Made by a program: the position numbers and the translations under genes
Notes under the pieces: model-generated
What the model saw: the letters and a program-made list of their open reading frames with translations, nothing else
What the model was told of the DNA's origin: nothing
Databases searched by the model: none
Part shown: positions 27,089 through 27,448 of the stretch, in pieces
Numbering within the stretch: position 1 is the first letter of the stretch
Layout of the letters: each line of letters starts with the position of its first letter
From: a virus
Direction: 5' to 3' (one strand)
Virus record (IMG/VR): IMGVR_UViG_3300024259_000123
Location: 1-28,645 of that record
DNA: 28,645 bases

Positions 27089-27448
27089 GTGCCCGAACTG
27101 GTTTCGATTGGGCGAATAATATTGAATGTGCAAGGCGAAGGGCAGCGCGGCTTCGTAAAAACGCTGAAATGATAATTGCTAACGATAACTCGGAGTACTC
27201 TTACGCACAAGCTGCATAATTGCGAGGTGGCCAACTACCTTGATACCCAAAATTGGCTGGATGTTTTACCGCATTGAGATAAAAATGGTTGCTAAATGGT
27301 TCCCTGGCTCGCCAGGTGGGTCCCAGTGTCTAGAACGGGACGGGTGTTTTATAGGCAGACTTGCCGGTTGAGAAGAACCGGATAACCTTGTGAATGACAT
27401 GAAATTGAAGCGTTCAACACCCCGGTTCGACTCCGGGCGGGTACACCA
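27089..27448 (+). ncRNA. ssrA: tmRNA (ssrA), tag peptide ANDNSEYSYAQAA
   Basis: 5' end GTGCCCGAACTGGTTTCGATTGGG resembles E. coli GGGGCUGAUUCUGGAUUCGACGGG. The 5' acceptor strand GTGCCCG pairs with 3' CGGGTAC (7 bp, one G-U). 3' T-arm CCCGG-TTCGACT-CCGGG, then discriminator A and CCA. Internal tag ORF GCT AAC GAT AAC TCG GAG TAC TCT TAC GCA CAA GCT GCA TAA at 27178-27219 ends in AA-stop like ANDENYALAA. Confidence 0.8.

Follow-up and report, generated by a model that had tools for sequence, protein, structure and literature searches.

Phages that carry a tmRNA gene, huge phages included, are already described (PMC9004378, PMC7162821, PMC12656738). Buchholz et al. counted tmRNAs in 402 of 18,146 phage genomes (2.3%, 133 unique), in agreement with the statement, made in a preliminary description of the DNA studied here, that only a minority of phages encode one; marine phage tmRNAs are mostly two-piece, as in Melnitz and the pelagimyophages, and just 2.5% of the one-piece phage tmRNAs are marine (PMC9004378). 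tmRNAs are also encoded by Bradyrhizobium elkanii phages (PMC12656738) and, as cited in that paper, by mycobacteriophages. Al-Shayeb et al. (2020) listed tmRNAs among the genes of huge phages, along with SmpB and release factors (PMC7162821), and Iyer et al. (2021) described RNA-repair and ribosome-rescue sets in jumbo phages (PMC7824862). Three of these papers (PMC9004378, PMC7162821 and PMC12656738) contain no experimental proof of phage tmRNA function. Xanthomonas phage XacN1 was dropped from the comparison, its paper making no mention of a tmRNA.

We analysed a stretch of 28,645 nucleotides from an IMG/VR virus record (hereafter the window) and confirmed that it holds a complete tmRNA gene carried by a very large marine phage. 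Like the phage tmRNAs described before, this is a complete ssrA for which a rescue role can be proposed and which has no lysogeny genes in the loci read, and it is marine like that of Melnitz. Unlike the Melnitz and pelagimyophage tmRNAs, it is one-piece, and at blastn sensitivity it has no nucleotide similarity to the tmRNAs of GenBank phages (no match among 50,697 phages). ARAGORN calls a tmRNA at 27089-27448 on the + strand, with the tag peptide ANDNSEYSYAQAA* and a coding part at nt 90-131, and the Rfam model RF00023 matches at identical coordinates over the full model (1-374) with 92 bits (E = 8e-35), the criterion for membership in this covariance model being its curated gathering score of 47 bits. 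Both arms of this check, which had been set beforehand, therefore return a tmRNA, with exactly the coordinates and the tag that had been proposed from the letters of the sequence; the relatives of the window tmRNA reach 112-114 bits with the same model. The ARAGORN call is that of a standard, non-permuted gene, which rules out a two-piece (circularly permuted) tmRNA, and Rfam found no riboswitch with the tmRNA. The ORFs that overlap the gene on either strand were discarded: they have TTG or GTG starts and are unconserved between lineages. Stops are present in all six frames across the gene, so that no hidden ORF accounts for its conservation. The elements of the gene are the following.

27089..27448, + strand: complete one-piece tmRNA gene, 360 nt, CCA encoded (ARAGORN, Rfam RF00023)
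27089..27095, + strand: 5' strand of the acceptor stem, GUGCCCG, with G3 of G3:U70 at 27091 (7 of 7 pairs with 27438-27444)
27108..27134, + strand: helix 2, 5' strand, made up of 2a (27108-27114) and 2d (27129-27134) (Rfam alignment, pairing)
27135..27166, + strand: pseudoknot 1 (PK1), GCGAAG/CUUCGU interleaved with CAGCG/CGCUG (read from the sequence)
27178..27219, + strand: tag frame, from the GCU resume codon (nt 90) through ANDNSEYSYAQAA to UAA at 27217-27219 (ARAGORN, translation)
27204..27224, + strand: helix 5, a CGCA/UGCG hairpin whose loop holds the stop codon (sequence, Rfam alignment)
27229..27278, + strand: candidate pseudoknot 2 (PK2), GGCCAA (nt 141-146) with UUGGCU (nt 165-170) (complementarity)
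27303..27381, + strand: PK3/PK4 region, with hairpins at nt 215-228, 232-253 and 276-293 (compensatory changes)
27387..27417, + strand: helix 2, 3' strand, at 27411-27417 (2a) and 27387-27392 (2d) (pairing with the 5' strand)
27421..27437, + strand: T-arm, CCCGG-UUCGACU-CCGGG (sequence, covariation)
27438..27448, + strand: 3' strand of the acceptor stem, CGGGUAC, then the discriminator A and CCA (sequence)

The gene was compared between four related marine lineages, in all of which it is located after a nucleotidase gene: the window lineage, whose version is identical in the assemblies read, which come from at least six different samples; L001, with L017 and L036 (IMG/VR viral contig); L014 (Tara Oceans scaffold); and L042. 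The tRNA-like parts announced in the preliminary description are all in place. The 5' and 3' ends (nt 1-7 and nt 350-356) form an acceptor stem in which every pair is made, G3:U70 included, and which is followed by ACCA; pairs 2, 4 and 5 covary between the lineages, and the G3:U pair, which is the alanine identity pair, is invariant. The T-arm fits the conserved pattern GGUUCGAnUCC; its loop does not vary either, and three of the five T-stem pairs change on both sides, with three versions of the stem across the four lineages. Helix 2, taken as a further criterion for a tmRNA, was found at nt 20-26/323-329 and 41-46/299-304, with no anticodon arm; its pair 20:329 changes from U-A to C-G, and one G-G mismatch occurs in three lineages. 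PK1, with stems of 6 and 5 pairs, lies just upstream of the resume codon and is fully paired (11/11) in the four lineages; its sole substitution (nt 60) falls in a loop and the stems are invariant, hence there is no internal covariation. In the ssrA alignment it matches the E. coli PK1 position for position, CGUAAAAA loop included. Helix 5 (nt 116-136), with the UAA stop (nt 129-131) in its loop, is likewise invariant and so gives no covariation evidence.

The assignment of the remaining pseudoknots is more graded. The pairing of GGCCAA with UUGGCU as PK2 is tentative, the Rfam posterior probability being low there; this candidate would sit in the loop of a helix at nt 151-155/186-190, in which L042 has a one-sided G-U to G-C change at 154:187. 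A first PK2 model (nt 137-140/149-152) was dropped, and its replacement agrees with both Rfam and the 154:187 change. In the PK3/PK4 region, the pairs 232:253 and 278:291 each change from G-C to A-U in a compensatory manner and a one-sided change is seen at 241:267; the loop at nt 240-244 may pair with nt 264-268, again at low Rfam posterior probability. Unconstrained minimum-free-energy folding of the window variant did not recover the canonical tRNA-like domain, and the folding z-score of the whole RNA is about -1.5, a result that we judged uninformative for a pseudoknotted RNA.

Set against E. coli ssrA, the window gene is of nearly the same length (360 versus 363 nt) and shares with it G3:U70, A73-CCA, the T-loop, the stop codon in helix 5 and the position of the resume codon at nt 90; ahead of this GCU stands AUAAUU, in which U85 and A86 match the E. 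coli RNA. By position, the tRNA-like domain, PK1, the resume region and helix 5 of the two RNAs are homologous. They differ in the acceptor pair 2:71, which is U:A in the window, and in PK2-PK4, where the sequences bear no relation to the E. coli ones. The loci differ too: upstream of E. coli ssrA lies smpB, and its 3' end adjoins a prophage integrase, neither of which was found beside the window gene.

The in-frame tag ORF closing on Ala-Ala and a stop, as described from the sequence alone, was recovered both by ARAGORN and by translation. The tag has 13 encoded residues, three more than the ANDENYALAA of E. coli; the two start with ANDxN (ANDN in the window) and end with Ala-Ala, but the window tag ends AQAA rather than the common ALAA, the Gln at the third position from the end being atypical. 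Some alphaproteobacterial tags likewise end AQAA. Between lineages, a single tag substitution was seen: one codon change turns Y7 into H in L042, whose tag is ANDNSEHSYAQAA, and the other three lineages have none, so that residue 7 is variable (Y or H) and the C-terminus YAQAA is common to all four. In E. coli, as is well established, the N-terminal portion of the tag is recognised by SspB and the C-terminal LAA by ClpX, for which the terminal Ala-Ala is dominant. By this standard the window tag is expected to act as a working degron, possibly a weaker one. Searches for the tag strings in the searchable literature and in the supplements of PMC9004378 returned only noise, and an exact-tag pattern search of IMG/VR returned one relative only; the tag of the window tmRNA is new.

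We then assessed selection on the RNA from the four-sequence alignment, on which a structure of 76 pairs was scored against 500 shuffles and against controls in which the pairing partners were slid by 1-3 columns. The structure is 98.7% paired across the alignment, and nine pairs change on both sides (2:355, 4:353, 5:352, 20:329, 333:349, 334:348, 335:347, 232:253 and 278:291). None of the 500 shuffles reached the observed values for pairing and double changes, and the slid-partner controls gave at most two double-changed pairs and 28-44% pairing. In this scoring the invariant helices, having been derived from the sequence, are neutral, and it is the covarying pairs that constitute independent evidence. 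Between the window, L001 and L014, the 288-nt core of the RNA shows 98-99% identity, compared with 77-86% for the flanking genes, whose third codon positions differ at about 40% (core versus third positions, Fisher p = 1e-30); the few core substitutions are located in loops or are compensatory. Near identity of the core beside diverged flanking genes argues that the tmRNA is a functional RNA under purifying selection, and the recurrence of the same gene in four diverged lineages, together with nine compensatory pair changes, places it far beyond chance.

No tmRNA accompanies the nucleotidase homologues at 53% identity (L043 and L044), nor is there one at the distant loci L002-L004 and L006. 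A 23-mer of the resume region, searched in metagenomes and in 185,579 species with one genome per species, retrieved two one-piece relatives, and the species genomes yielded no one-piece counterpart; the other matches were set aside as permuted alphaproteobacterial-type tmRNAs sharing just the generic region, or as chance. A search of IMG/VR with both 3' ends of the tRNA-like domain, made for a host ssrA fragment serving as attP, gave nothing new.

The tRNA-like domain of the window lineage is the least canonical of the four. Between it and the domain of each other lineage, 23-25 of 72 positions differ, none of them in the loops, G3:U70 or CCA; L001 and L014 are identical to each other in this domain and L042 departs from them by two compensatory T-stem pairs only. 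The core of the window RNA, by comparison, differs from those of L001 and L014 at 2-4 of 288 positions. U2:A71 stands in place of G2:C71, the Rfam score is lower by about 20 bits, and folding predictions favour a competing fold of the domain over the canonical one by 3.1 kcal/mol. Since the lineages are about equidistant in their flanks, this looks like a concerted remodelling of the tRNA-like domain in one lineage, with its stems rebuilt by compensation, a reading drawn from the small sample of four lineages. Escape from a factor that recognises the acceptor or T-arm (a nuclease or a modifying toxin) is one possible cause; a fit to the SmpB, AlaRS or RNase P of another host after a host switch is another. 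It is also possible that the changes conferred DNA immunity to a free-standing HNH homing endonuclease, encoded 495 bp downstream of the tmRNA in the window lineage only, in which case changes in the 3' strand would have been forced and the 5' strand would then have been compensated. That conflict rather than drift drove the remodelling seems doubtful to us; if it did, the RNA would, with its non-LAA tag, be a specialised counter-defence tmRNA and not a plain spare copy.

The immediate surroundings of the gene contain the following features.

26379..27011, + strand: 5'-3' deoxyribonucleotidase-like gene, 210 aa (phrog_2643, 6.6e-17)
27009..27036, + strand: promoter-like TGAACA - 16 nt - TATACT (consensus scan, 9/12 matches)
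27046..27062, + strand: small hairpin of the putative 5' leader, GGCGAU-GAAAC-GUCGCU (alignment of four lineages)
27465..27878, + strand: small NUDIX hydrolase gene, 137 aa (Pfam NUDIX, 6.8e-15)
27943..28645, + strand: HNH + NUMOD3 homing endonuclease gene, running past the window end (286 aa in L030)

The tmRNA thus lies between a nucleotidase gene and a Nudix gene, a placement that the family matches bear out. The nucleotidase gene is syntenic upstream of the tmRNA in 4/4 lineages, and the NUDIX gene is absent from L042. The promoter-like hexamers do not vary between the four lineages, not even in those with other genes upstream, and we infer that 27009-27036 acts as a sigma-70-like promoter, located about 50 nt before the mature 5' end. 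Downstream of it, the stem of the leader hairpin is kept by differing sequences in the four lineages (GGCGAU/GUCGCU, GGUGAU/AUCACC, GGUGG/CUACC and GGCG/CGCC). The ribosome-binding site of the NUDIX gene begins 5 nt past the tmRNA CCA and no terminator was found between the two genes; the tmRNA is therefore probably co-transcribed with the NUDIX gene and cut out of the transcript. Beyond it comes a variable slot, occupied by the HNH endonuclease in the window and, in L001, by a stand-alone RF1-type GGQ peptidyl-tRNA-hydrolase domain of 131 aa. This GGQ protein matches Pfam RF-1 at 2e-30 and falls below every NCBIfam cut-off, so that we assign it neither to ArfB nor to PrfH. In the same sister lineage, a TROVE/Ro60-like gene is found a few kb upstream.

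On a larger scale, the genes of the window are densely packed, nearly all of them lie on the + strand, and most have no family match. Those that do match include NAMPT, an NMNAT-Nudix protein, an IMPDH/GMP-reductase-family enzyme and adenylosuccinate synthetase (NAD salvage among them), two RNA ligases, at least four homing endonucleases and a cluster of three tRNAs. The source contig adds, beyond the window, a GH25 endolysin with a peptidoglycan-binding domain (phrog_291, 9e-38), a tRNA nucleotidyltransferase (phrog_2244, 1e-56; CCA/PcnB-like in NCBIfam) and a P-loop kinase. The tmRNA region is present on a contig of 104 kb and the nucleotidase protein is recorded on one of 318,267 nt. A tblastn search with E. 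coli SmpB, which took in the window and related loci and so about 50 kb of a genome that measures 318 kb or more, gave no match. The precomputed Pfam matches of the loci read include no integrase, and no capsid, portal, terminase or other virion structural gene was found in the stretches read. Similarity to deposited phages is low: blastn of 8 kb of the window against GenBank phages gave a single match of 130 nt, inside the NAMPT gene, and at the protein level the best NAMPT matches, in the Ralstonia jumbo phage RsoM2USA and in an uncultured phage of 642 kb, do not exceed 55% identity. Among GenBank phages, the vault-like gene has matches in huge uncultured ones only, and for NAMPT and the vault-like gene together the best or only GenBank phage matches are in uncultured phages of 462-735 kb. 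As the matched genes are typical of large lytic phages, we assign the genome, on its gene content, to a large lytic-type marine phage, the virion genes being the one gap in this assignment.

This gene content resembles the sets of huge and jumbo phages, in that the tmRNA is accompanied by tRNAs, RNA ligases, a CCA-adding enzyme and a kinase in a genome of at least 318 kb, to which the sister lineage adds the release-factor-derived GGQ protein and the TROVE protein; huge and jumbo phages may encode SmpB, whereas none was seen in the sequence inspected here. It also resembles the T4-type Pnk and Rnl system, by which phage T4 and its like counter anticodon nucleases, since RNA ligases, a P-loop kinase and phage tRNAs occur in the same genome region. 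The two share the logic of restoring translation after RNA damage, but T4-type repair mends the broken tRNA, whereas a tmRNA acts by rescuing the ribosome and disposing of its product.

Rescue after RNA damage and a non-host degron are among the roles put forward in the preliminary description, and both are reasonable proposals. Given this RNA-repair neighbourhood, we favour the reading, with a probability of roughly 0.72, that the tmRNA provides the phage with extra ribosome-rescue capacity during infection. No phage smpB having been found in about 50 kb, we infer that the RNA would work through the SmpB, AlaRS and EF-Tu of the host, and we assume that it is compatible with host SmpB, AlaRS and ClpXP; the determinants kept by selection are G3:U70, A73, the T-loop, PK1, the resume context and the tag frame ending in Ala-Ala. 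Such a function would be of use in infected cells, where the host no longer transcribes and where host defence nucleases or phage-induced decay cleave mRNAs and tRNAs. The RNA would be transcribed from the conserved sigma-70-like promoter, probably together with the Nudix gene; host RNase P would then trim its 5' end, removing the leader hairpin, and host nucleases its 3' end, to the CCA. Charged with alanine by host AlaRS through G3:U70 and A73, and bound by host SmpB and EF-Tu, it would enter ribosomes stalled on truncated mRNAs. Translation would resume at the GCU of nt 90, (A)ANDNSEYSYAQAA would be appended and the UAA stop would free the ribosome, the tagged fragment being passed to host proteases that read the C-terminal Ala-Ala. 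A benefit of this kind fits the surroundings of the gene, in which RNA ligases and a CCA-adding enzyme are encoded alongside a P-loop kinase and tRNAs.

The same machinery could serve a different end. Trans-translation may occur and yet be of value mainly because the tag differs from that of the host, leading to slower degradation, to another protease or adaptor, or to amino-acid recycling. A tag longer than that of E. coli and ending AQAA instead of ALAA, the retention of YAQAA in four lineages against variation at an internal residue (Y7 to H), and the failure to find the exact tag in the searchable literature are all consistent with this. However, the tag retains generic proteobacterial determinants (the ANDN N-terminus and the terminal Ala-Ala), some alphaproteobacterial tags end in the same four residues, and the non-host status of ANDNSEYSYAQAA is a premise of the argument. 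Selective tagging is one of the options proposed by Buchholz et al. (PMC9004378); that retargeting by the tag is the main value of the RNA, we regard as unlikely here. A purpose still further from productive rescue would be to shut down or sense host trans-translation, with the phage RNA titrating SmpB, AlaRS or EF-Tu or competing with the host tmRNA. Al-Shayeb et al. mention a phage tmRNA sensing the host state (PMC7162821), and both the atypical tRNA-like domain of the window and the lack of a phage smpB in the sequence searched, which implies competition for the host protein, would suit such a decoy. Yet it is the mRNA-like part of the molecule (resume context, tag frame, helix 5 stop and PK1), needless for a decoy, that is most conserved, and G3:U70 and CCA are kept, which makes this reading very improbable.

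Rescue by the phage RNA presupposes that the gene is functional and that it belongs to a phage, and neither point is in serious doubt. ssrA is a classic prophage integration site, that of E. coli adjoining CP4-57 and intA, and a host copy taken up by imprecise excision, or an attP remnant, could be carried without function. Prophages do hold ssrA fragments (PMC9004378), but the gene here is full length and not a 3' fragment, no integrase was seen in the loci read and the resume-region 23-mer has no one-piece counterpart in the species genomes. Purifying selection and compensatory evolution in four lineages largely refute this reading, for which we see hardly any room. The window could also be thought to be bacterial chromosome bearing the cell's own ssrA, a view that the want of a capsid, portal or terminase gene in the stretches read would favour and that we find scarcely credible. 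The genes are dense, nearly all on one strand and for the most part lacking family matches, and they comprise at least four homing endonucleases, the endolysin, the tRNA cluster, NadV/NatV and RNA ligases; a relative is found in IMG/VR, no smpB is nearby, and the only GenBank phage matches of the vault-like gene are those in huge uncultured phages. With the contigs reaching 318 kb, and with neither smpB nor an integrase found in the sequence read, the phage-borne status given to the gene in the preliminary description holds.

The gene alone raises no new question. Distinctive here are the new AQAA tag, the one-piece form in a marine phage, the lack of a riboswitch, the jumbo-phage RNA-repair context and the remodelled tRNA-like domain. 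The four natural variants offer two acceptor stems, three T-stems and two tags, a set that would be handy for comparing charging, SmpB binding and degron strength. A tmRNA that is supported by selection, and that lies amid RNA-repair and ribosome-rescue genes of an uncultured marine jumbo phage, lends weight to the idea that large phages bring along a kit of their own for the maintenance of translation.

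Permuted, two-piece tmRNAs, retrieved solely through a common 23-nt resume region (the short stretch at the tmRNA resume codon that served as a query in metagenomes), are present in the marine metagenome contigs L009, L011, L013, L016, L020 and L023. They carry an odd, long tag, ANDNFKPELSFDFDGVLEAA, which ends in EAA and not in LAA, and they could be pelagimyophage-type phage tmRNAs. In the sister lineage (L001 and L036), which has the one-piece tmRNA in the same place as the window, the following genes lie around it:

L001 6605-7228 (-): extra ORF of 207 aa, without a family match
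L001 8944-9339 (+) and L036 about 11233-11628: stand-alone RF1-type GGQ domain of 131 aa (Pfam RF-1, 2e-30)
L036 6094-7434 (+): TROVE (Ro60-like) gene of 446 aa, a few kilobases 5' of the tmRNA

The 207-aa ORF is an insertion that separates the nucleotidase gene from the promoter of the tmRNA; downstream of it, promoter and leader are still conserved. On the other side of the tmRNA, a fourth diverged lineage (L042, 1075-2438) lacks the Nudix gene and the endolysin gene follows the tmRNA directly; thus, the tmRNA-Nudix pairing is not obligatory. The GGQ gene, absent from the output of the ENA gene caller, sits after the Nudix gene and before the endolysin, in a variable slot filled in the window by an HNH-NUMOD3 endonuclease. 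Its product scores under the cut-offs for prfA, prfH and arfB and is possibly a peptidyl-tRNA hydrolase independent of stop codons. The TROVE gene is missing from the window, and an Rfam scan of L036 at the gathering threshold found no Y RNA.

The contents of the slot 3' of the Nudix gene vary among lineages, as does the presence of the homing-endonuclease-type genes; L036, for instance, has no counterpart of the one at 23586-24470. The density of these free-standing genes (HNH, NUMOD3, DUF7487/TnsA-like) is unusually high, and a tRNA cluster directly follows the one at 6694-7671:

Window 6694-7671 (+), 15976-16701 (-), 23586-24470 (+) and 27943-end (+): homing-endonuclease-type genes
L030 (the window's own version, continued past its end) 12187-12747 (-): homing-endonuclease-type gene
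Window 7657-7886 (+): tRNAs Gly-GCC, Arg-TCG and Thr-GGT, spaced 2-4 nt

Two further window genes have domain matches:

Window 8015-10627 (+): vault-protein-like gene of 870 aa (Major Vault Protein shoulder domain PF11978, 4.6e-21)
Window 66-977 (+): weak PARP catalytic-domain match (9.7e-05, under the Pfam threshold)

Besides the shoulder domain, the vault-like protein contains a vault repeat (1.2e-08) and matches SPFH/Band-7 weakly. Its matches in a set of 50,697 GenBank phages are confined to three huge uncultured ones (462-735 kb) and cover 97% of the protein at 36-41% identity. The weakly matching PARP-like gene lies near the NAD-salvage genes NadV/NatV (window 18831-21241). A longer form (464 aa) is found at L037 5051-6445. 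The gene may be part of an NAD/ADP-ribose conflict system.

Genes for RNA processing are found in the window and, in L030, about 8-11 kb past its end:

Window 3825-4484 and 16745-17650: two RNA ligases
L030 16836-18587: tRNA nucleotidyltransferase (CCA-adding/PcnB-like) of 583 aa (phrog_2244, 1e-56)
L030 19246-19977: P-loop kinase (Zeta_toxin/AAA_33; weak polynucleotide-kinase PHROG match)

The nucleotidyltransferase, the kinase and the two ligases form an RNA-repair set.
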